From a virus (Duplodnaviria > Caudoviricetes): a stretch of 27,870 bases of DNA. Shown piece by piece: positions 4,093 to 27,716 of the stretch. The notes under the pieces are model-generated. The model was not told the DNA's origin. It searched no databases and was given only the letters and a program-made list of their open reading frames with translations. The first letter of the stretch is position 1, and every line of letters begins with the position of its first letter. Location: positions 1-27,870 of the IMG/VR virus record IMGVR_UViG_3300011338_000581. The stretch is one strand, 5' to 3'. The translations under genes were made by a program, and so were the position numbers.

Positions 4093-4109
4093 GGCGTAAG
4101 TATCCCACA
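4093..4109 (-). promoter_or_regulatory. TGTGGGATACT-N6-ATG motif (copy 2)
   Basis: AGTATCCCACA at 4099-4109, 6 nt from ATG 4092, with no SD. Confidence 0.7.
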
Positions 4110-4113
4110 CACC

Positions 4114-5190
4114 CTATATGAGCTCACGTAGAGGCCGTACACGGGTGTTAGGCCCCCAGTCTTGGTTTGGTATCACCTGCACGAAATCAGCAAGCGGTTT
4201 GCCTTCCATATACATGGCGTATCTTTGTGGCCCCATAATCGCCAACTTGTCACCTTCCGACAATCCAGCAAGGATACGCTCAGGTGTTGCTACCGGCGGG
4301 CGTGTGTCCGGAATAGAAGAATCCCCGGTAATCTCTGCCCATGACATCGTTACCGGAACCATGACGCATCTACAGTTAGGATGCGATGGCATGATTTCAT
4401 CTGTGGCCGAAAGCGTACCAGACAATGCCAGACAAGCCAGACAAACCCTGCTGTCCTGCGTGGCTTGCCGTCTGTATCCTTGCACCGCTGGGTTCTGTGT
4501 ATAGAGTTGCCGTTGTGCTTCACGGGCACTGCGGATCATCTCAGTACGGGCAATGGTCTCTGCACGTTGCCTGCCAATATCAGCTGCACGTCTTACACGC
4601 CTTGCTACTGTCCGTGGGCCTTCACCAAGCGAGATGCCCTGTACCAAAGCCATCTGCATAGCATCCGTGGTTACTTGGGGGATGGTGTCAAATAAGACAG
4701 CCAGAGGGCTACCATCGCCTGCGAACCCGACAAAGGCCTGCAAGGACTCATCAGGTAGGTTTGTCCATGAAGTACCAAGGGTAACGCCTGCGGGCTTTTT
4801 ACCCGCTGCCGTTTCCACAAGGCTTTGCGTTGCATCATTAGCAAGTATTGCGCTTTGGAGTTGACCATCTGCGGTTATCGTTGCTCCCTCGATGCTGAAC
4901 TTCTTCAGGTTGCGCCCAAGCTCTTCGATGTTGTCAATGATGCGTTGCCGCATCCAGAGTATGGTTTCGCTTGGGTCTTCACCGTTATCCATTCGCTCTT
5001 GGATACGACCTTCCAGCGCTTCCAGTTCATCGATGCTCGCCTTGGTAGCTGCCTTGTATGCGCGTTGCATCCGGGATATGGCTACGCCTTCACGCTCCAG
5101 CAAATCGTTGCGAAACTTTTGGCTGGCGGCATAGATTCTGCCCGTGCCGTCGTCTACCCGTTTGAGATGTTGCACATCTCGTACCCGTAA
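4114..5190 (-). CDS. MuF / SPP1 gp7-like minor head protein; start uncertain (GTG 5175 or entry by -1 frameshift at 5190-5196)
   Basis: RAETIARTE, DSRVCLACLAL.G and PSHPNCRC are MuF motifs. No C-terminal toxin extension. Confidence 0.9.
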   Translation of the reverse strand, partial: LRVRDVQHLKRVDDGTGRIYAASQKFRNDLLEREGVAISRMQRAYKAATKASIDELEALEGRIQERMDNGEDPSETILWMRQRIIDNIEELGRNLKKFSIEGATITADGQLQSAILANDATQSLVETAAGKKPAGVTLGTSWTNLPDESLQAFVGFAGDGSPLAVLFDTIPQVTTDAMQMALVQGISLGEGPRTVARRVRRAADIGRQRAETIARTEMIRSAREAQRQLYTQNPAVQGYRRQATQDSRVCLACLALSGTLSATDEIMPSHPNCRCVMVPVTMSWAEITGDSSIPDTRPPVATPERILAGLSEGDKLAIMGPQRYAMYMEGKPLADFVQVIPNQDWGPNTRVRPLRELI

Positions 5191-6878: not shown

Positions 6879-6895
6879 GTTCCTAGTATCCCACA
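6879..6895 (-). promoter_or_regulatory. TGTGGGATACT-N6-ATG motif (copy 1)
   Basis: AGTATCCCACA at 6885-6895, 6 nt from portal ATG 6878 and directly after the moron terminator. Confidence 0.7.
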
Positions 6896-6927: not shown

Positions 6928-7134
6928 TCAATAGCAATATGAGTATTTTTCATCTTTGCTAATCTCTTTAGCATATTCGACTGTTGATTCATATTGATCG
7001 ACTTCAGCCAAGATGTCTGCTTTTGTCTTGTCTTTGTAGTATCGGCACCACGCACAGAATCCATTTACATGAACAATAACAATAACGAACTCATCTTTTT
7101 CTTCAATGTACAAACTGTAGCGTGGCTTCTTCAT
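6928..7134 (-). CDS. Hypothetical 68-aa moron protein
   Basis: AT-rich ORF with its own GGAGATA RBS (7142-7148), promoter and terminator, lying between terL and portal. Confidence 0.75.
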   Translation of the reverse strand: MKKPRYSLYIEEKDEFVIVIVHVNGFCAWCRYYKDKTKADILAEVDQYESTVEYAKEISKDEKYSYCY

Positions 7135-7163
7135 ATCTATCTATCTCCCTGCTTGATGTCAAT

Positions 7164-11416: not shown

Positions 11417-11594
11417 GATTGGTATCTATCTCCTTCGCGGTTTCCCATACAAGGGCATCCCGCATCTGTTGTTCACTGATGCCTTGCTTTCGAGCCATCT
11501 TCCTCACATCGTTATACAGCCATCTAGTGTACATTTCGTTGTACACGGCAAGGCATCCCGCACCAAGCAGGACACCGAGTGCAAAGAGAATCAT
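11406..11594 (-). CDS. Small membrane-anchored hypothetical protein
   Basis: Start MILFALG by ATGA overlap at 11594; N-terminal hydrophobic helix. Confidence 0.65.
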   Translation of the reverse strand: MILFALGVLLGAGCLAVYNEMYTRWLYNDVRKMARKQGISEQQMRDALVWETAKEIDTNLGK

Positions 11595-11809
11595 CGGTTC
11601 ACCGTCCAATATGGGAGACGCTTATCAGCCGTAACGCGGCATCTTTCAACGATTACTTCTAATGTCTTTTCTCTTGAATCTTTTGTTATGCAAGCTACGA
11701 GTGCCATAAGGTAAAACCGGCACTTATTCACAATCTTAGACCACACCCACCAAGTAAGCGCACCAAGGCAAAGACTTTGCATATCAACTTGTGTAAAGTC
11801 CATCATCAT
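11591..11809 (-). CDS. Small hypothetical membrane protein
   Basis: ATGA-coupled at both ends; hydrophobic LCLGALTWWVW. Confidence 0.55.
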   Translation of the reverse strand: MMMDFTQVDMQSLCLGALTWWVWSKIVNKCRFYLMALVACITKDSREKTLEVIVERCRVTADKRLPYWTVNR

Positions 11810-12051
11810 TTGGTTTCTTCCCATATCGGTTCCCCGGTAATCGGATTGTACTTACCAATCATCCAGTCATCGGCGAATAGGTCACCAGCGGTAAGCCAGA
11901 TGACCGAGTTGTTTTCCTTGACCTCTGTACCCTCTGCAACGCTGAACACGTCCCAAAGTTCACTAAAGCGGAAGTGTAGCCCCTCTGGCCAGAAAGCCCG
12001 CCGTATGGGCTTCTCAGCGAGCAGGGCATCTAGTGCCTGGTTGTATTTCAT
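11806..12051 (-). CDS. DUF2829 / Tad2-like protein (copy 3)
   Basis: MKYNQALDALLAEKPIRRAFW...WLTAGDLFADDWMI fits the family pattern M.F..AL..LK.G..V.R..W...D.LA.DW.I. Confidence 0.72.
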   Translation of the reverse strand: MKYNQALDALLAEKPIRRAFWPEGLHFRFSELWDVFSVAEGTEVKENNSVIWLTAGDLFADDWMIGKYNPITGEPIWEETK

Positions 12052-12284
12052 TCTTTATCTCCCCAAGTCGCATCACCCGTCACCGGGTTGAAGCGTCCGA
12101 CAATCCAATCATCTGCCAGCAGGTCTGCCCCGGTAATCAAGCATGAAGCGTTTATGCATTCAATATCCTGCCCGCTAAACCCCATCCACATCTCACTAAA
12201 ACGGAGTAGCCGGTACTTATCCCATGCTAGCCGCCGGATAGGCCTGCCGAACTTCAGAGCCGTAAAGGCTTCCTCGATTCTCAC
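12048..12284 (-). CDS. DUF2829 / Tad2-like protein (copy 2)
   Basis: GTG start at 12284 (GTGA overlap). EAFTALKFGRPIRRLAW...ITGADLLADDWIV. Confidence 0.72.
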   Translation of the reverse strand: MRIEEAFTALKFGRPIRRLAWDKYRLLRFSEMWMGFSGQDIECINASCLITGADLLADDWIVGRFNPVTGDATWGDKE

Positions 12285-12712
12285 TTTACTATCACCCAAT
12301 CAGCTGCCATTATGTCAGCACCACGAAAGTAAGCAGGCCCGGCATGGTGCCGGTTTCCTGCACCGTCGAGTTTATACATAACCAACTGCCCGTGACTGAT
12401 GGCGTAGTGAAGCCTAGCGCCATCCCTGCAAAGGTATCTGCCTTCTTTAAGGTGAACCATTGCCCCGCTGAAAGACATCCGGCATTGCGGGTGCTTGGTC
12501 TCAGGTGCAAAGGCAGCAATCGGAGCGGTACACAGTTGCTGGTATCCAAGGCTTGTAGCGTAAGCGTGTAGCTCAGGGTTACGGATCCACTTCTCGACGC
12601 TCTGCCGCCTAACGATGCTGTCAGCGTTAGACCAGTTGCCGGTCTCGCTAAAGATTTCCATCGCTTGCCGGATGCGCTCTTTCTTCTCTTCGAGACTAAA
12701 CGCTAGCGCCAT
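12281..12712 (-). CDS. HTH-like N-terminal domain fused to a DUF2829 / Tad2-like domain (copy 1)
   Basis: N-terminal FSLEEK...VRRQSVEKWIR resembles an IS-type HTH. C-terminal MSFSGAMVHLKEGRYLCRDG...ADIMAADWVIV. Confidence 0.68.
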   Translation of the reverse strand: MALAFSLEEKKERIRQAMEIFSETGNWSNADSIVRRQSVEKWIRNPELHAYATSLGYQQLCTAPIAAFAPETKHPQCRMSFSGAMVHLKEGRYLCRDGARLHYAISHGQLVMYKLDGAGNRHHAGPAYFRGADIMAADWVIVK

Positions 12713-12935
12713 TATTTATCTCCTCGGCTTCCTTGGCTATGCGATCCGCAAAGGCCACATCTTTGGTTGCCACGTAAGCCATGTACCAGAGCGCCTTGAT
12801 GGCATCGTCTGTAGCCGTTCCCTTGTGTGGGCATCGTTGCAGGTATTTGACAACGTTCCCTGCAGCAAAGTCCAGCCCCCAGTCGTCTATGACGCTGAGG
12901 GCTTGAATCTTGGTTGTTCGGTAATGACCGGTCAA
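12696..12935 (-). CDS. DUF3310 (SaV-like) protein
   Basis: HY...I....VI...F..GNVVKYL.R..HKG...DD..KALWY. Confidence 0.88.
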   Translation of the reverse strand: MTGHYRTTKIQALSVIDDWGLDFAAGNVVKYLQRCPHKGTATDDAIKALWYMAYVATKDVAFADRIAKEAEEINNGASV

Positions 12936-13273
12936 ACCGCCACCGCTTTGCTCTGTTTAGACATCATGCGATCGATGTTGTAGCTCACTGCCCAGATGTC
13001 AGCAAGCACGTCGGCTACCTTCAGGTTGCCAATCCAGAATGGATTCTGAATACAATCGCCGAACCAGTTATTGCAGTCAAAGATGCCGGTGTCTTCACCG
13101 GTCATAGCAACCATCAGGTGCAGGTCACCCTTGGTCATATGAATCTCGCTATGGTCGCTTGATACCTGAATCTGCAGCGGGCAATCGATTACACCGAAAG
13201 GCTCAACCCGGTTGATGGTCTGCTGTGCAAGGTCGGTTATAACCTCAGCGATTGTCTTAGTTGTTTCTGTCAT
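12932..13273 (-). CDS. Hypothetical protein
   Basis: Start MTETTK at 13273 after a GGAGATA RBS (13279-13285). Confidence 0.7.
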   Translation of the reverse strand: MTETTKTIAEVITDLAQQTINRVEPFGVIDCPLQIQVSSDHSEIHMTKGDLHLMVAMTGEDTGIFDCNNWFGDCIQNPFWIGNLKVADVLADIWAVSYNIDRMMSKQSKAVAV

Positions 13274-13294
13274 CTTTTTATCTCCCAAAGTAAC

Positions 13295-18476: not shown

Positions 18477-18577
18477 GTTCCATATATACCATATGTATAT
18501 ACTTCCCTGTCAAATGTTTGACATTATATATCTAGTGTGTATAATAGTGATGTGCCACGGGGTACAGGAGATAAGAG
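18477..18577. promoter_or_regulatory. Divergent early promoter region with operator-like palindromes
   Basis: + strand TTGACA (18518-18523)-16-TATAAT (18540-18545); - strand TTGACA (18508-18513). Near-matches to TATAC-N7-GTATA at 18483-18501 and 18527-18543. Confidence 0.82.
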
Positions 18578-18823
18578 ATGAAAGAACAAGCGATCAAGAT
18601 GGTTGAAGAGATGACGGCGGAAGGTGCAATCCTTCAGCTGCACAGCCCATCAGGTCAACACGATATGGATGACATCGAGGCAATCGAGGCAATCCAGATG
18701 ACGCGCGACAATATCCGCATCAGCGGTAGCACCATCATCTTCGGTAACGGTGAAGTCAGCATCACTATTGAAGACCAGGACGACTACAACGCAGACGCAT
18801 CCAACCACGTAACGGGAGAATAG
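18578..18823 (+). CDS. Small acidic hypothetical early protein
   Basis: First gene after a consensus promoter; RBS GGAGATA at 18567-18573. Confidence 0.78.
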   Translation: MKEQAIKMVEEMTAEGAILQLHSPSGQHDMDDIEAIEAIQMTRDNIRISGSTIIFGNGEVSITIEDQDDYNADASNHVTGE

Positions 18824-19582: not shown

Positions 19583-20148
19583 TGGGATTTGACATTATAG
19601 ACGGCGAGTTGTGGGACGAAGAAACCGGCGAGTATGCTGGGCCTGCGTCCGGTTGGATCAAGGGCAACGAGTCACCTGAAGACCTCGCGCTCTTGGTCAT
19701 GCGAAAGCGCATGGACATCGAGGCAGCCATCCAAGGCGAAAAGGATAAGCTCAACGCCATCACCAACAATATTGCCAAGATGTTGGGCAGGCACGTTGCA
19801 CGGCTTGAATGGCTGGAGACACAGTACAACGCCCAGCTGCAGGAATACGCAATATCTCAACTACCGCGCAAGGCTGATGGTAGCCTGAAGGGTAAGACCT
19901 GGACGTGCCCATTCGGCTCTATTGGCTTCCGCACGATAGCCCCTAGGGTTGCCGTGGAGTCTGAGGATACAGCCTTGGCATGGGCGCGGAAGAACTGCCC
20001 GGCTGCCATCAAGATAAAAGAATCCATCTTGGTTAGCCAACTTCCAGACCCGATCAAGAGCGCCATGCTTGAGCATCCAGCGGATGCCCTAAAGGCTGGC
20101 TTTGTGGTTCATCCGGAAGCGCAAGCAGTAACCATCAAGACGGTATAA
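19582..20148 (+). CDS. Mu Gam / siphovirus Gp157-like protein
   Basis: Coiled coil followed by KTWTCPFGSIGFR...AL.WA; adjacent to erf. Confidence 0.7.
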   Translation: MGFDIIDGELWDEETGEYAGPASGWIKGNESPEDLALLVMRKRMDIEAAIQGEKDKLNAITNNIAKMLGRHVARLEWLETQYNAQLQEYAISQLPRKADGSLKGKTWTCPFGSIGFRTIAPRVAVESEDTALAWARKNCPAAIKIKESILVSQLPDPIKSAMLEHPADALKAGFVVHPEAQAVTIKTV

Positions 20149-20204
20149 TCCTAGCACCCGCAAGGGAAACCAAAAACAACAACTGGATGCCGGAACTGAT
20201 GAGG

Positions 20205-20237
20205 AAAGACCCGATCTAAAACATCGGGTCTTTTTTC
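20205..20237 (+). terminator. Intrinsic terminator between convergent operons (possibly bidirectional)
   Basis: AAGACCCGAT-CTAAAAC-ATCGGGTCTT followed by TTTT. Confidence 0.88.
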
Positions 20238-20239
20238 GT

Positions 20240-20776
20240 CTACCAGTCAATCGCTACAAAGCCACCGTTGCTTCCAAGCTCGCGCCATGCTCTGGCTTTG
20301 CGGTAGACACCGTCACCCTCCCGCGTTACCTTGTCTTCATCTTCCATCTCAGGTGAGGTGTTGCCCTCAACGGTCTTGACCCCCCAAGGAAAAACACCGG
20401 TCACGATACCAATATGAGCAAGCCGGTTCAAAGGTGCAAACCAGAAGCAGATGAGGTCACCGATGCGTACCTTGCTTGGGTCGGCTTCCGCATCCTTCAC
20501 GGGTAGCCAGTTCTTGGTACGTCTTGCCCAGTTGCCATGATCGGGGCAGTAAGCCGAACGCGGCCAGTCTGCCGGGATGTCAAGGGCTAAGTCATGAGCT
20601 GCATTGCGTAGCCTGTAGACCACAAAGGCAGCACACCACGGGCTACCGGGTGGAACAGGTGGAGTGGTTGAGGCTTGGTAGATTTCTACCGCCTTGCCGC
20701 GATTGTCCCCGGTCTCCTGCACACCGATATTATCGATGGCTTCCTTAGCTGCACGTAAAGCGATAGGTCGTGACAT
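20240..20776 (-). CDS. CHAP-domain peptidoglycan hydrolase (endolysin)
   Basis: PWCAAFV (catalytic Cys), GDLICF, HIGIV (His) and TVEGNT. Confidence 0.9.
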   Translation of the reverse strand: MSRPIALRAAKEAIDNIGVQETGDNRGKAVEIYQASTTPPVPPGSPWCAAFVVYRLRNAAHDLALDIPADWPRSAYCPDHGNWARRTKNWLPVKDAEADPSKVRIGDLICFWFAPLNRLAHIGIVTGVFPWGVKTVEGNTSPEMEDEDKVTREGDGVYRKARAWRELGSNGGFVAIDW

Positions 20777-20862
20777 GATATATTTCCTTTGTCGATCTTA
20801 TCTCCCGACACGGTGGGCAGTCCTCCTCGGTTGCTGTTCCTGCTGCCCACCACCCCTTTTTT
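20776..20862 (+). ncRNA. Candidate ~72-nt two-hairpin small RNA with anti-SD loops
   Basis: TGaTATATT extended -10 (20776-20784), stems TGTCG/CGACA and GGTGGGCAG/CTGCCCACC, and a T6 run at 20857-20862. Confidence 0.45.
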
Positions 20863-20863
20863 C

Positions 20864-23770
20864 TTAGGCGTAAGTTCTACCGCCATCCACTGACCTAACA
20901 ACCGTGATGCCATTACTCTGGTGGTTGTACACAATATAAAGGTCATCTAGCCGCTCATATATTGAGATTGAGTCATTAGCCACATTGTTGGTAACAACCG
21001 TTGTGGCGGCCATTACAACAGTCCCTGAAGCATCTAGAATCTTGCTTTGGATATCACTTCCAGATGTGCGCCAGATGTATATCTCCTGCCCTTGGTTATC
21101 AACCACTAGAGCCGGATGCGATCCGCTTGCATTTATAACCGTTGCCACGCTTACCGTCCCTCCATCATCACCTGTGTAGTACCGCTTGAGTCCACCGGCT
21201 TCCTCGGTAAAGATGATTGTTCCAAAGTCTGCATCACGCCGGAGACATCGAATCGCAAGGTCGGTCACCCCGGTAATCGTTGTCGGTATCTCAACGTAGT
21301 CGGTTGCTAGTGGCCCGTTAGCTCGCCACAAAGATACATCACCACTCACAACCGTTGCATAGAAATGTTCATAGACTGGATTCCTATCAGCTGAGAAAAC
21401 GTGCTCTGTTGGTGATGGATTCTTGAATACAAAGCGATACGACTTGTTCACAAATAGCGGGTCAGGGTCACCGCTGTTCTGAGCCAGGCATATGGTGTTG
21501 TGGTTCTTTTGCCCAAGCCCCATAGGTTGCGCGGTGTAATACCTGCCAAGGATGTCAGATACACCAAGGCCACGAACACCCCCGGTTGAATCAAGCACGA
21601 GTTGAACGGTTTCAGCTTCAATCGGATCTGCATCAGTGGCAAGTACAAGACCAGCCGAGCGCCCACGCTGGTAGGAAACGGCACCAATAGACAACCATAG
21701 GCTACCAGCATCGTCCTGCTCAAAGACATCGAGCATATCTGGTACAAAGTCACCATTGATAGAGCGGAAGTATGTCTGCGCTAACACGTCGGCTTCTGGC
21801 CCATCGTCGCTCTGGTCTGTCTCGACCCAGTTCTTTATCTCGGCTGAACCACCTACAGTCTTGAATGTCGTACCGCCTAACCAATAGGCATGACCACTGG
21901 TGCTGTTTGCATACCCATTACGTATATAACTTACGCTCGTAAGTGGTGTGCTTGCGCTTGCCGTGTATCCTTGATGGCGCTTCACTGTTCCATCTACCGC
22001 GTTGATTGCATCGACAAAGTTTGCAATGGTACTTATGGTGTTGGTTGCCGGGCTTGACTGCCAAACCGCCCAGCCTTCCTCGGTCATACTGTTACCTTGG
22101 CAGTCTGCAATGAAGTGCCGGTTTGTCGTAAAGGTATTGCCTGCGTACGTAGTGAACTGCTGTTTGTTCCATGCTCTGGCTGGCATCCAGTAGCCCTTGG
22201 TGTAGTCAGAGTCTGGATTCTGTACTACAAGTTTGATGTCACCCATAACCAAGCCGGTATGCCCTAGTGATATCTGCGTAATGCGGGTCACTCCCCAGTA
22301 ATCACCATCTTCCATTTGAGCAGCATTATTAGGGTCGGACGGGTTCATCCTTGGATACGGATGGTCGGTTTCATCGAGGGTTGATGTTTTGTTCTGAGGA
22401 CTGCATAGGTCAAGGTAGACATCAATAAAGGCTGTACTGTTGGTGCTTACCTCCCATGACTTTGTCATATTGTTTGGTTGATAAAGAACACTTATCGTGC
22501 CGTTATGAGTTGTCCCGCTTGGTGCTTTTATCTGCACCTTCATATATCGGTATGAGTTCAACCCAAAGCCGGGAGCGGTGAAGCTTCGCGTATCTGTAAT
22601 GGATCCGATTGAAACGTTAGTCTCATCTGCTTGAATAACCGATGCGCCAGGGAATGACCAACCACGGAAGGACATCTTTGTATTCGTGCTGTCATCACCT
22701 AGTGCCGTCAGGCTTGCCGCTTTGATGTCTGCATAGATGCTGGTAGGTATGGTGTTGACGGTCTGGCTATTGCTTTGTGTAACCGTACCGCTGCCATTGA
22801 ATGATTGTATGGTGGTCTGCACATACGTATTGAGAAACGCCGCATCCTCTTGAAACTGCCCAGCAGTAGCCACGATGTCGCGGTAGCCGGTAGGAAGGTC
22901 AAAGCCAGTGATGCGCACGTCAAGGTCATCGTAATAGTTGAGGTTGTAGCTGCGAATCCTACCCTTCATCCGCATCAACCGCCTAAGCGTCATGTTAGTT
23001 GTACCGGTGATGTTGGCTCCCGGTTGAGTGACACCAAAGCCGGTTACAACATACTGCGTTGCTGTTGCAACTTGAGAAAAGTAAGAGTGGCTGTATCCGG
23101 GGACACTGCTTACAAGGCTCACAAGGTTACACAATCCCGGTGATAGGGTTAGTGTCTGGGCTACCGTGGTGTTGTTCCACATCCGCAACCCTACGCGCAA
23201 ATCCCACGTCATAGCGGAGGCACTACCGATAGCCCCTGAGCTCGTCTTTGTCTGCCCGTTGATTACAATCTTAGCGGTAGCAGTACCGCCGATGTTACTG
23301 GTCTCGTATGAGTCGTAAGTGATGTCAGGGTAATCGGATCCTGCACCACCGAAAGCCGCTTGTGTGATGTCCCAGTAGACGGTGCTTTCATCTACCGTCC
23401 CTGTCCAGTCGATGTTCAATGCCCCAACGTTTACACTGATTCCGATGAGCGCATTAGCAGCCGTACCTGTGCCGGACTGGAGAACAAAAGTACTTGTGCT
23501 TGTTGCTCCGAATCCGTTATTGGTCATCACAGAAGCGCGTACTTCCCATGACCATGTTGTAGTACCAAAGCCAGACGTGCTGCCAAATCCAAAGATAAGA
23601 ACGCTCCCTGATTGTTGGTTTGAACCAAAGGTAAGGGTGCCGAACTGTGGCCCGTAGATTTCAAGATCATCTGGGGTAGGAACATCAGACGGGAAAACAT
23701 GAACCCGTAGATTGCTCGATAGTGAACAGGTAACTTCACTCTTACGGGAGCGGTCTATATAAACTGCCAT
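20864..23770 (-). CDS. Large minor tail / tail-tip protein (~968 aa)
   Basis: Start MAVYIDRS at 23770 (TAATG overlap). S/T/G-rich beta-type composition, second gene after the TMP, BNR-like SVDGGRT at the C-terminus. Confidence 0.7.
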   Translation of the reverse strand: MAVYIDRSRKSEVTCSLSSNLRVHVFPSDVPTPDDLEIYGPQFGTLTFGSNQQSGSVLIFGFGSTSGFGTTTWSWEVRASVMTNNGFGATSTSTFVLQSGTGTAANALIGISVNVGALNIDWTGTVDESTVYWDITQAAFGGAGSDYPDITYDSYETSNIGGTATAKIVINGQTKTSSGAIGSASAMTWDLRVGLRMWNNTTVAQTLTLSPGLCNLVSLVSSVPGYSHSYFSQVATATQYVVTGFGVTQPGANITGTTNMTLRRLMRMKGRIRSYNLNYYDDLDVRITGFDLPTGYRDIVATAGQFQEDAAFLNTYVQTTIQSFNGSGTVTQSNSQTVNTIPTSIYADIKAASLTALGDDSTNTKMSFRGWSFPGASVIQADETNVSIGSITDTRSFTAPGFGLNSYRYMKVQIKAPSGTTHNGTISVLYQPNNMTKSWEVSTNSTAFIDVYLDLCSPQNKTSTLDETDHPYPRMNPSDPNNAAQMEDGDYWGVTRITQISLGHTGLVMGDIKLVVQNPDSDYTKGYWMPARAWNKQQFTTYAGNTFTTNRHFIADCQGNSMTEEGWAVWQSSPATNTISTIANFVDAINAVDGTVKRHQGYTASASTPLTSVSYIRNGYANSTSGHAYWLGGTTFKTVGGSAEIKNWVETDQSDDGPEADVLAQTYFRSINGDFVPDMLDVFEQDDAGSLWLSIGAVSYQRGRSAGLVLATDADPIEAETVQLVLDSTGGVRGLGVSDILGRYYTAQPMGLGQKNHNTICLAQNSGDPDPLFVNKSYRFVFKNPSPTEHVFSADRNPVYEHFYATVVSGDVSLWRANGPLATDYVEIPTTITGVTDLAIRCLRRDADFGTIIFTEEAGGLKRYYTGDDGGTVSVATVINASGSHPALVVDNQGQEIYIWRTSGSDIQSKILDASGTVVMAATTVVTNNVANDSISIYERLDDLYIVYNHQSNGITVVRSVDGGRTYA

Positions 23771-26118: not shown

Positions 26119-27716
26119 TAGCGCACCGGCATTCCCTGTCCACCATTAACGGCGAACAGTATATTGTTTTGAATCATGTCTTTGATACCACGGGTTACCA
26201 TCGTGTCTCCCCGGATTGGCTTGACCTTGGTTATCTCACTACGGTATTGCATACCCATACCTGCAAGCTCTGCACCAGTGATGCCTAAGCGTCCCATCTC
26301 ACCACCGCCGAGCGTCTGCCGTCGGAGATCTAACAGGTCGGCTGACTTCTTGGTATTGGATTCAATCTTTTGAAGATGACTTTTCACATCCTTGGTATCT
26401 TTGTCCTGCTTCATCTTTGACTCAGCACCAAAGGGTAACAAAGCACGGGCAGCGTTTACCGTTGCGCCAGTTTTTTTGGCTTCGAGAGCAAAACGGAATG
26501 TCTCGAAATCCTTCATGACGTTTCCGGTTTCGCCTGTAGTTTTGCCAGTGACATCTAGTAATCGAAATGGTGCGGTCAATAGTGTTGCACTACGTGAACC
26601 AATCCGTTGTAGGCTTCCAAGGAACGTCTGATCTTTACTTACTGCGTTCCATTCTTTGATTATATATGACAAGTTTCGTGGCAGAACATTTGCCATAGAT
26701 GCCAACACGGCAAGTATATCTAAGAAAACAGACTTTACATCACCACCAATACCAGCCAACTCTTTTAGTGGTTTCATCATCTGCTCTGCAAAAAGTTGTG
26801 GGAACTGACTATCTGAAATTGTCTTGAATATCTCACCTATGCCAATCAAAAAGGGCTTCAGCGCATTGTTTGTAGTCTCACCGAATGACCGCTGAATCAT
26901 CTGCATGGAGTCGGTAATCGTTGCTTCCATGGCTTGCGTGGTTTCAGCTGACTTCTTTATAGCACCGGAAAACTTCTCATTGATAATGCGTTCAAAGGCA
27001 AGCATCGTTTGTTCTGCGGAGCTGATAAGGCTTCCTTGATTATCAAACTTGATTCCTTGTTTTCGCAGGTCTCCTTTGCTTACACCCATTGCCCCCATGG
27101 TTTCAAGTTCAGGAAGTTGCCCCTGCTTTAGCATATTGAAGCCACGGACATACTGCATTAGTTTCTCTTGATCGGCTCCCATTGCCTGACCAAGTTTTGT
27201 AATCATCGGAAGGACACGTTCGACGTTCTGACCAAAGGCGGCAAGGTTGACCATTGCCATCTCAAGTTGTTGAGTCGTGAACATAGAAGGCCCGGCTTCC
27301 TTAGCGGCTAACGCAAGCATCTCCTGCGCTCTTGATGCCGACCCGGTCAAACCTTCAAGCCGTGCTTTCATGGCTTCAAACTCGATGCCAGCTGCACGGC
27401 TATTGAATAACATCTGATATGAGGCTACCGATATAGATGTCAAGGCTGCGGCATAAGCGGCAAAGGCAACTACACCAGCACCAGCAATACCTATGCCTGC
27501 GGCCATTGCAGGGGAAAGGCTGGCGTACGCTTTGCCAACGTTTGATAAAGCATTGGATACATTGATGCCTGCAATCTCAAAGTCATCAAATGGCTTCTTG
27601 GCATCCTTGGCGGCAGCCCCGGTTTTCTTTAGTTCTTTCTCGGTGTCGTTGAGTTTCCGTTTGACTTCATCGCCACCTTGAGCCGAAAGTTTTACCACGA
27701 GTTCTGCGACTGTCAT
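26118..27716 (-). CDS. Tail tape measure protein
   Basis: MTVAEL.VKL N-terminus, FE.....LEGLTGS...A.EML......PSMF tape-measure domain, Ala/Gly-rich helical composition. Confidence 0.9.
   Translation of the reverse strand: MTVAELVVKLSAQGGDEVKRKLNDTEKELKKTGAAAKDAKKPFDDFEIAGINVSNALSNVGKAYASLSPAMAAGIGIAGAGVVAFAAYAAALTSISVASYQMLFNSRAAGIEFEAMKARLEGLTGSASRAQEMLALAAKEAGPSMFTTQQLEMAMVNLAAFGQNVERVLPMITKLGQAMGADQEKLMQYVRGFNMLKQGQLPELETMGAMGVSKGDLRKQGIKFDNQGSLISSAEQTMLAFERIINEKFSGAIKKSAETTQAMEATITDSMQMIQRSFGETTNNALKPFLIGIGEIFKTISDSQFPQLFAEQMMKPLKELAGIGGDVKSVFLDILAVLASMANVLPRNLSYIIKEWNAVSKDQTFLGSLQRIGSRSATLLTAPFRLLDVTGKTTGETGNVMKDFETFRFALEAKKTGATVNAARALLPFGAESKMKQDKDTKDVKSHLQKIESNTKKSADLLDLRRQTLGGGEMGRLGITGAELAGMGMQYRSEITKVKPIRGDTMVTRGIKDMIQNNILFAVNGGQGMPVR

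Follow-up and report, generated by a model that had tools for sequence, protein, structure and literature searches.

A conserved antisense element upstream of a phage endolysin gene as a candidate small RNA against the ribosome binding sites of the phage's own early genes

On the strand opposite to the late operon of the phage analyzed here, directly upstream of the endolysin gene, a conserved structured unit was identified that is apparently undescribed (positions 20776–20862). Its function is a prediction: a trans-acting small RNA directed against ribosome binding sites (RBS), which would damp the translation of early and middle genes of the phage itself, is the reading to which the sequence comparisons give somewhat better than an even chance.

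Genome organization and putative host

The analyzed stretch of DNA, in the following called the window, comprises the 27,870 nt of the virus record, which is 91% complete. A single, long leftward operon leads from an HTH gene via a sigma factor gene, replication genes, methylases, the terminase and the portal gene to the head genes, and it continues round the genome into the tail genes and a CHAP endolysin. The rightward operon is short and contains two unknown genes, Erf and a Gam-like gene. As an early-operon promoter, a perfect match to the sigma-70 consensus TTGACA-16-TATAAT was found at 18518–18545 on the + strand.

The endolysin gene (20240–20776, − strand, ATG at 20776) was assigned via PHROGs (endolysin) and Pfam (CHAP domain). 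For the late-operon gene upstream of it (20864–23770, − strand), no PHROGs or Pfam family was matched; it has homologues in all related records compared and likely encodes a tail protein. The gap between its stop at 20864 and the endolysin ATG measures 87 nt and is filled by the element. An integrase or resolvase could not be found in five complete records, which fits a lytic role. A Tad2-like (anti-Thoeris) domain was detected at the Pfam cut-off (25.9 vs. 25 bits) in the product of 11806–12051 on the − strand, a gene that has a GGAGATAA RBS and a paralogue at 12048–12299.

The search in GTDB resulted in matches to an Armatimonadia bin (54%) and a Chthonomonadaceae bin (33%), as well as weak matches to Parapedobacter. 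Further matches, on short contigs in an Actinomycetota bin and an archaeal bin, are probably misbinned phage. The best hint at the host is Armatimonadota, as homologues of the endolysin (54%) and the Gam-like protein (41%) are located on a single contig of the Armatimonadia bin. The capsid protein of cultured phages is less than 60% identical to that of the window. The Armatimonadia contig carrying an endolysin homologue (G010, contig C8) also contains, near a Gam-like gene, an ORF of 4289 aa without Pfam match (L227, 1667–14536, + strand).

Sequence, fold and conservation of the element

The element begins with an extended −10-like promoter sequence, TGaTATATT (TGATATATT, 20776–20784, + strand), which overlies the endolysin start codon and the spacer of its RBS. 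On the same strand, hairpin 1 (GUCG/CGAC, 20791–20809) follows from the predicted +1 at G20791, and its loop (20795–20805) contains the putative anti-RBS seed UUAUCUCC at 20798–20805. Hairpin 2 (20812–20851) has a 9-bp stem (GGTGGGCAG at 20812–20820, CTGCCCACC at 20843–20851) and a variable, CU-rich loop. The + strand (81 nt) folds into these two hairpins with −24.8 kcal/mol (z −4.4; 0 of 200 shuffles), and the minus strand folds too (z −2.6). A search of the window against Rfam 15 gave no match at the gathering score, and at E ≤ 10 none of the matches overlaps 20776–20862.

To collect relatives, the endolysin was used as a query, which resulted in 47 loci in IMG/VR. Two were left out, L011, whose contig ends in the gap, and L047, with 54% identity and a different context; the window and the other 45 loci are referred to as lineage A (n = 46, of which 44 are distinct and two are from one contig). 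The order TATA(T/C)T, 6 nt, G, hairpin 1, linker, hairpin 2 was found in 46 of 46 sequences. The −10 box reads TATATT in 42 and TATACT in four of them, and a TG precedes it in 42. While the distance from the predicted +1 to the endolysin ATG is either 15 or 18 nt and the six spacer bases vary, the spacing from the box over 6 nt to the G is fixed in all 46 sequences, as predicted for a promoter with G20791 as +1. The extended −10 signal on the + strand, which had been proposed in the preliminary description, is thus kept in the relatives together with its spacing. An own promoter, as a trans-acting anti-RBS small RNA would have, is indicated by this conservation, and G20791 is the presumed rather than a mapped transcription start.

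The coordinates in the preliminary description all turned out to be exact when the sequence was re-read. Its hairpin 1 (TGTCG 20790–20794/CGACA 20806–20810) contained an additional outer pair, T20790–A20810. The sequence is correct, but this pair is not kept in relatives, for which reason hairpin 1 most likely starts at G20791. Similarly, the tail ACCCC-U6 (ACCCC-T6 in the DNA, 20852–20862) is present as described, but it is a weak, non-canonical 3′ end and not a canonical terminator: the terminator scan listed none here, and a run of at least five T after stem 2 is found in 14 of the 46 sequences.

The check for covariation gave a clear result for stem 2, in which 99.1% of the cells of 26 aligned sequences are paired and three pairs are doubly changed (13 cells; 0 of 500 shuffles). 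In stem 1, a compensated insertion (GUCAG/CUGAC) occurs in 8 of 46 sequences. Loops that change among relatives would have spoken against the element, and loop 1 keeps TTATCTCC and likewise the seed UUAUCUCC in 46 of 46 sequences. The interpretation of loop 2 as a generic seed for AGGAGGA had to be given up: the loop varies, TCCTCCT is present in 5 of 46 sequences only, and the sole constant part is CUCC(C/U) in 44 of 46. Within lineage A, loop 2 does not track the early RBSs of its own genome (6 vs. 6.7 expected, p = 0.72), nor does the variable end of loop 1 (8 vs. 8.8 expected, p = 0.71), and no covariation was detected between loop 2 and a second RNA near 20156 (p = 0.38). A conserved ORF for a small protein was not found: 1 of 46 sequences has an ATG within the body of the RNA, and an overlapping 57-aa frame on the + strand, open over 50 codons in 26 of 46, begins upstream of the predicted +1.

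A metagenome search gave 69 further matches, 66 of them adjoining an endolysin; its pattern included the −10 box, so that these matches are no test of promoter conservation. With a pattern for hairpin 1, 44 stretches were found in IMG/VR, of which the eight new ones were rejected as chance matches since they possess neither a second hairpin nor the neighbouring genes. A covariance model (R1) found copies from lineage A only, among 26 sources, which is weak evidence of non-homology, stem 1 being off by one column in the model. All eight sequencing runs listed consist of contigs; in four of them, relatives span the region, but strand, start and level cannot be read from contigs.

Two further features were observed around the element. 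In lineages A, B and F (L010, L018, L026, L037, L115, L150), arrays of short palindromes, e.g., GAACTTGTAAG...CTTACAAGTT and GTTCCATTTTGGAAC, adjoin the endolysin, and their number and order differ among relatives. A second candidate small RNA is located after the Gam-like gene (20144–20238, + strand), with a TATAAT over the stop codon, 6 nt, an A, a CCC-GCAA-GGG hairpin, the A/C-rich strand AACAACAAC followed by a strong terminator. Of the 46 lineage-A sequences, 40 contain a related stretch, mostly after TA(T/G/A)A(A/C)T. A role as a sponge or as a decoy for a protein is conceivable for this candidate RNA.

Predicted targets in the window and in lineage A

Loop 1 is an exact 10-nt complement of GGAGATAAGA (18567–18576, + strand), the RBS of the first early gene in the rightward operon (18578–18823), as the preliminary description had stated. 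GGAGATAAGA occurs once in the window, with an expected count of about 0.05, and the predicted duplex reaches −13.4 kcal/mol with the opening cost included. The 7–9 nt matches reported for further RBSs are present as well. On the − strand, the predicted targets are GGGAGATAA at 13278–13286 (gene starting at 13270) and at 12055–12063 (gene 11806–12051, with the Tad2-like domain at cut-off score), GGAGATAA at 12716–12723 (gene 12281–12712), GGGAGATA at 7142–7149 (small gene 6928–7134 between terminase and portal) and, more weakly, GGAGATA at 11427–11433 (ParB-like gene with a TTG start). On both strands of the window taken together, GGAGATA has eight copies: six at RBSs, one in the element and one in the tail gene.

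The seed UUAUCUCC complements GGAGAUAA, an extended RBS common to many early-operon starts. For a count, 180 rightward-operon ORFs with a GGAG/GAGG start were taken from 41 loci and clustered by BLAST. GGAGATAA precedes 92 of the 180 starts, distributed over 15 protein clusters, with 23 of 25 starts in one first-gene cluster and 18 of 27 for Erf. Many early genes escape, e.g., the Gam-like genes with 2 of 37, and this speaks against the main reading. In the window, the starts of the sigma factor, primase and helicase genes escape the seed match, so any switch would be partial; helicase or primase starts are matched by the lineages' own seeds in lineages B, C, D and E.

Two Armatimonadota bins served as proxies for the host, although they may not be the host's. 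GGAGATAA-N1-6-ATG occurs four times in the 27.9 kb of the phage, whereas six copies were counted in the 3.3 Mb of one bin and 19 (control 15) in the 4.8 Mb of the other. As far as the proxies show, the motif is therefore a signature of the phage rather than an RBS common in the host. The predicted target is a phage-specific extended RBS instead of a generic Shine-Dalgarno (SD) sequence. The preliminary description had suggested that the RNA occludes SD-led mRNAs of phage and host in trans. The comparison supports the pairing of loop 1 with the phage's own early and middle RBSs, while the host part is not supported, as the motif is rare in the proxies. The same rarity makes it very unlikely that the element is a general anti-SD RNA shutting down host translation, for which the constant CUCC(C/U) of loop 2 could be cited, a sequence that found no phage target and could act on host mRNAs.

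Matching seeds and RBSs in distant lineages

Distant phages, with endolysins of about 45–60% identity, were reached by alignment-based search. Many of them contain an antisense RNA-like unit at the same gap that cannot be aligned to lineage A. In these units, a TA-A-T-type box is followed after 6 nt by what is usually a purine, then by CU-rich sequence as a single strand or in a loop, and by a strong hairpin; their position in the gap is kept in seven lineages. The −10 box of lineage E is located on the other side of the SD, which indicates that the box is more than an AT-rich spacer.

Seeds picked by eye match RBSs of their own lineage: CCUAAUCCU and AGGATTAGG in lineage B, GUACUCUUCUC and GAGGAGAGTAC in lineage C, ACCUCCUG and CAGGAGGT in lineage D, and GUUCUAUCCCUU and AAGGGATAGAAC in lineage E. 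Using whole records and gene starts from a simple caller script of our own, the hand-picked seeds matched 43 of 189 own early/middle starts, 8 of 183 late starts and 5 of 1060 early/middle starts of other lineages.

Since these seeds had been picked by eye, a choice-free test was run, in which the best 12-nt window per RNA was scored by exact 8-mer complements at −18 to −1 of the starts. The genomes are related and pooled counts thus overstate independence, for which reason the permutation tests take one genome per lineage. In the 5 × 5 matrix of RNAs and genomes, the diagonal reads 5, 3, 3, 3 and 4 and the off-diagonal values are 0–1 (p = 1/120); for the 7 × 7 matrix of all seven lineages, p = 1/5040 was obtained. 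The score of 5 for the window RNA was reached by none of 4286 other windows of its own genome and by 2 of 1000 shuffles. In total, 10 of 16 RNAs score at least 3 in their own genome. No 8-mer enrichment was detected for six of the 16 (B_G013, B_G014, C_G021, F_G017, F_G018 and G_G019; three of the records are incomplete). Read by eye, the loop of lineage F has a 7-nt match (GGAAGGA) to the RBSs of Erf and helicase. An energy-based target test was not significant for lineage B.

The seed is hence complementary to RBSs of distant mRNAs beyond chance, the pairing itself being predicted, and it is likely that each lineage has its own pair of seed and RBS, in which loop and target change together. 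The repeated words could also result from homogenisation of RBSs at the junctions of mosaic genomes, the loops being captured copies without regulatory pairing. The early operon is indeed mosaic, with unrelated genes behind the same RBS, and G005, G023 and G024 repeat RBS-like words without a clear matching RNA. However, the copies in the loops lie behind −10 boxes of fixed spacing, in covarying hairpins and in RNAs of several lineages that cannot be aligned, so this origin is regarded as quite improbable. A reverse-strand cassette of three small genes was observed within the late region of G002 (C1, 15887–16556, − strand), one gene of which strongly matches the seed of lineage C.

Phages without the gap RNA

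Among five phages without the gap RNA, the result is clear for G011, consists of a 7-nt match in G022, is weak in G023 and G024, and is negative in G005. G011, which has no gap before its endolysin, had been chosen as a negative control. GGAGAACAACA-ATG is common to three of its genes, and a fourth copy is present as the complement. This complement precedes the portal gene on the strand of the late operon, after TTGACG-17-TATAAC and before a hairpin with a U-tail. The putative RNA is complementary to the shared RBS over 11–12 nt and is joint top among 10,114 windows. A blind scan for promoter plus seed revealed a second G011 RNA with the layout of lineage A, i.e., a hairpin from +1, a UCUCC loop and a terminator. 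In the genomes having a gap RNA, the blind scan placed it first or joint first in 10 of 16. The two G011 candidates lie at about 4375–4470 on the + strand and at about 26190–26280 on the − strand of contig C1, each with a sigma-70-type promoter and a terminator.

Since in G011 it is the late mRNA that bears the complement, and the endolysin gene lies far from it, these RNAs are explained neither by a protein site on the mRNA strand nor by a role in cis only. This bears on a cis-antisense regulator of the endolysin leader, which would delay lysis and of which the trans matches would be a by-product. It would agree with the position kept in seven lineages, including F and G without 8-mer target enrichment, with a predicted +1 at 15–18 nt from the AUG and with PAK_P4as15 as a precedent (PMC12197685). 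Yet such a regulator needs no likeness to other RBSs, whereas the seeds match lineage-specific RBSs, and the matching RNAs of G011 are far from the endolysin, one of them on the sense strand. A role in cis as the whole explanation is therefore considered rather improbable.

Further units were observed in the other phages. In G022, TATACT, 6 nt, a small hairpin with the loop UUCUCCAG and a terminator are located just after the endolysin (C1, 11557–11628, + strand), and this candidate has a 7-nt complement to the phage's own GGAGAAC RBSs. G023 (C1, 21250–21339) and G024 (C1, 17781–17886) contain antisense units on the − strand with TATACT in the RBS spacer, a CU-rich strand and a strong hairpin, which precede a probable replication gene rather than the endolysin.

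Working strand

G–U pairs on the proposed RNA strand were found in L001, in the stem of lineage C and, three of them, in L247, the latter two read by eye. After the last hairpin, a U-tail is present on this strand in lineages B, C, D and F, and a U-tail after a hairpin was likewise found in G011. In five of six loop types, the first pair inside loop 1 is G–U on the mRNA strand, which counts against the proposed strand. The wobble-direction test for lineage A is limited by a core that lacks C and by the fact that an A>G change reinforces an ordinary SD as well.

Alternatively, the late mRNA might be the working strand, with GGA-rich loops bound by a protein that also reads early RBSs, be it CsrA-type, a RegB-like nuclease or a translational repressor. 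The folding of the minus strand (z −2.6) and a GGA in loop 2 of 46 of 46 sequences are consistent with this. The binding consensus of CsrA is ANGGA in short hairpin loops. CsrA-type sites on the minus strand, suggested in the preliminary description, were not confirmed, as ANGGA is present in loop 1 of just 8 and in loop 2 of 13 of the 46 sequences. RegB reads GGA plus an A-rich tail (PMC1702504), but no CsrA- or RegB-like gene was named by the PHROGs and Pfam scans. Furthermore, the promoter, as well as the U-tails in lineages B, C, D and F, are on the opposite strand, and the late strand of G011 bears the complement and not the motif. In view of this, a protein site on the mRNA strand is held to be highly improbable.

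Escape of late genes and timing

A late-promoter-like sequence, GTGGGATACT, was found on the − strand before the portal ATG (6885–6894), where the mRNA is likely leaderless, before the gene upstream of the major capsid gene (4099–4108) and before gene 1268–1765 (1772–1781). In the window and four lineage-A relatives, GTGGGATA(C/G/A)T is located 5–7 nt before these three ATGs, and in lineage E before two of them; GTGGGATACT was also seen in G022–G024. We infer that this motif is a phage-sigma promoter giving leaderless head mRNAs, the likely reader being the sigma-70-family factor of the phage (17108–17929, − strand). Many other late genes are stop-start coupled. An escape of the head genes, as had been proposed, agrees with the motif at 5–7 nt before the ATG and with the seed matches at early/middle (43/189) compared with late starts (8/183).

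The −10 box of the element always has a T at −12, where the late motif has a G. For this reason, host sigma-70 is a likelier reader of the RNA promoter than the phage sigma factor, and the RNA would accumulate from early on. A build-up from early on thus seems more likely than a late switch-on.

Proposed mechanism

From the conservation, covariation, complementarity and lineage match seen in the comparison, we infer transcription, start site, repression and timing as follows. An RNA of roughly 70 nt would likely be transcribed from G20791, probably by the host RNA polymerase from the start of infection, as suggested by the T at −12. Loop 1 would pair with GGAGAUAA of early and middle genes and block ribosome loading, so that GGAGATAAG-led mRNAs would be repressed, and with the build-up of the folded RNA early and middle translation would be damped. 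The head genes would escape because they appear to be leaderless or coupled to the preceding gene. The pair of seed and RBS would be private to each lineage. The SD of the endolysin, AAGGA (20785–20789), is the complement of the discriminator of the RNA promoter and a possible cis target. As the RNA is fully antisense to the gap between tail and endolysin gene and ends 15–18 nt short of the endolysin AUG, it may also restrain the endolysin, which would then be held until late mRNA outnumbers the RNA.

A different use of the same pairing would be the exclusion of kin, in which a stable RNA silences the early genes of later-arriving phages with the same RBS code and the codes diverge to escape. 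Seeds and RBSs are private to lineages, the target found most regularly is the first early gene (23 of 25 starts in one cluster), a host-type promoter would act early, and the heteroimmunity of c4 in P1 and P7 offers a precedent (PMC12197685). On the other hand, there is no sign of lasting lysogeny, given the five complete records without integrase or resolvase, and the code is constant in lineage A (46 of 46), so that close kin do not escape each other. Exclusion as the main role is considered unlikely.

In a wider interpretation, which has in our view about an even chance, a clade of phages of roughly 30 kb uses a private early RBS as a postcode together with a matching small RNA. Lock and key would be rewritten together in each lineage, the RNA gene would have arisen at more than one locus, and the RNA would be an RNA-only counterpart of RegB that sets the shift from early to late and maybe excludes phages with the same code. 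A phage RNA appears to address a whole class of the phage's mRNAs via a shared, lineage-specific RBS, and selection for such pairing could explain why RBS motifs are repeated in mosaic genomes of phages. It also suggests a route for finding such RNAs, namely the most shared RBS word and then its complement behind a promoter. The natural cognate and non-cognate pairs of seed and RBS are directly testable in E. coli reporters and could supply orthogonal sRNA/RBS pairs for synthetic biology.

Comparison with known systems

CU-rich anti-SD loops on hairpins are found in Cuckoo (αr14) and in RsaE and RNAIII of S. aureus, with a near-generic CCUCC/UCCC motif. CU-rich anti-SD hairpin loops are present here, too, without an Rfam match. 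By the tests run, the element appears to be a member of none of the systems compared. A phage RNA co-varying with an RBS that is private to the early genes of the same phage was not found in the literature searched, which covered few subscription papers. For the phage sRNAs described in the part of a 2025 review considered here, the targets are a single phage operon or genes of the host (PMC12197685). In Fremin et al. 2023 (PMC10690425), the text available contains neither 'Shine-Dalgarno' nor 'endolysin', and the motifs of the element are absent from three of its supplements, although the RNA may still be among the 10,006 candidates of that study.

AbcR1/AbcR2 (αr15) and NfeR1 of Alphaproteobacteria pair at the RBS of several mRNAs via an anti-SD seed in the 5′ loop (PMC8844928). 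The element resembles them as a short hairpin RNA with a predicted single-stranded anti-SD seed in its 5′ loop. Unlike AbcR1/AbcR2, it is phage-encoded, and its seed (UUAUCUCC, compared with CUCCUCCC in AbcR1; PMC8844928) spans the SD and the spacer of a motif that is private to the lineage and located on mRNAs of the phage itself. No match to the AbcR1/αr15 family in sequence or structure was found in the Rfam 15 search of the window.

The phage RNA c4 of P1 and P7 blocks an RBS in trans by loop seeds and controls the ant operon (PMC12197685). Loop seeds that block RBSs in trans are predicted here as well, and sequence differences, which lead to phage-specific control in c4, would do so here, too. 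In contrast to c4 with its ant operon, many unrelated early genes share the site here, and no integrase was found; membership in the c4 family is supported neither by an Rfam match nor by an antirepressor named among the 37 window proteins. PAK_P4as15 is antisense to an endolysin gene region, and a delay of lysis was proposed for it (PMC12197685). It has about 550 nt and acts in cis only, whereas the RNA predicted here has about 70 nt, is structured and contains predicted trans seeds.

The RegB nuclease of T4 inactivates early mRNAs post-transcriptionally via an RBS signature of GGAG plus an A-rich part, while late mRNAs are spared (PMC1702504; PMC3014915). RegB, as a nuclease, is a protein and uses S1 as its cofactor; in the phages described here, an RNA would take the part of the reader, with a signature that would vary between lineages.
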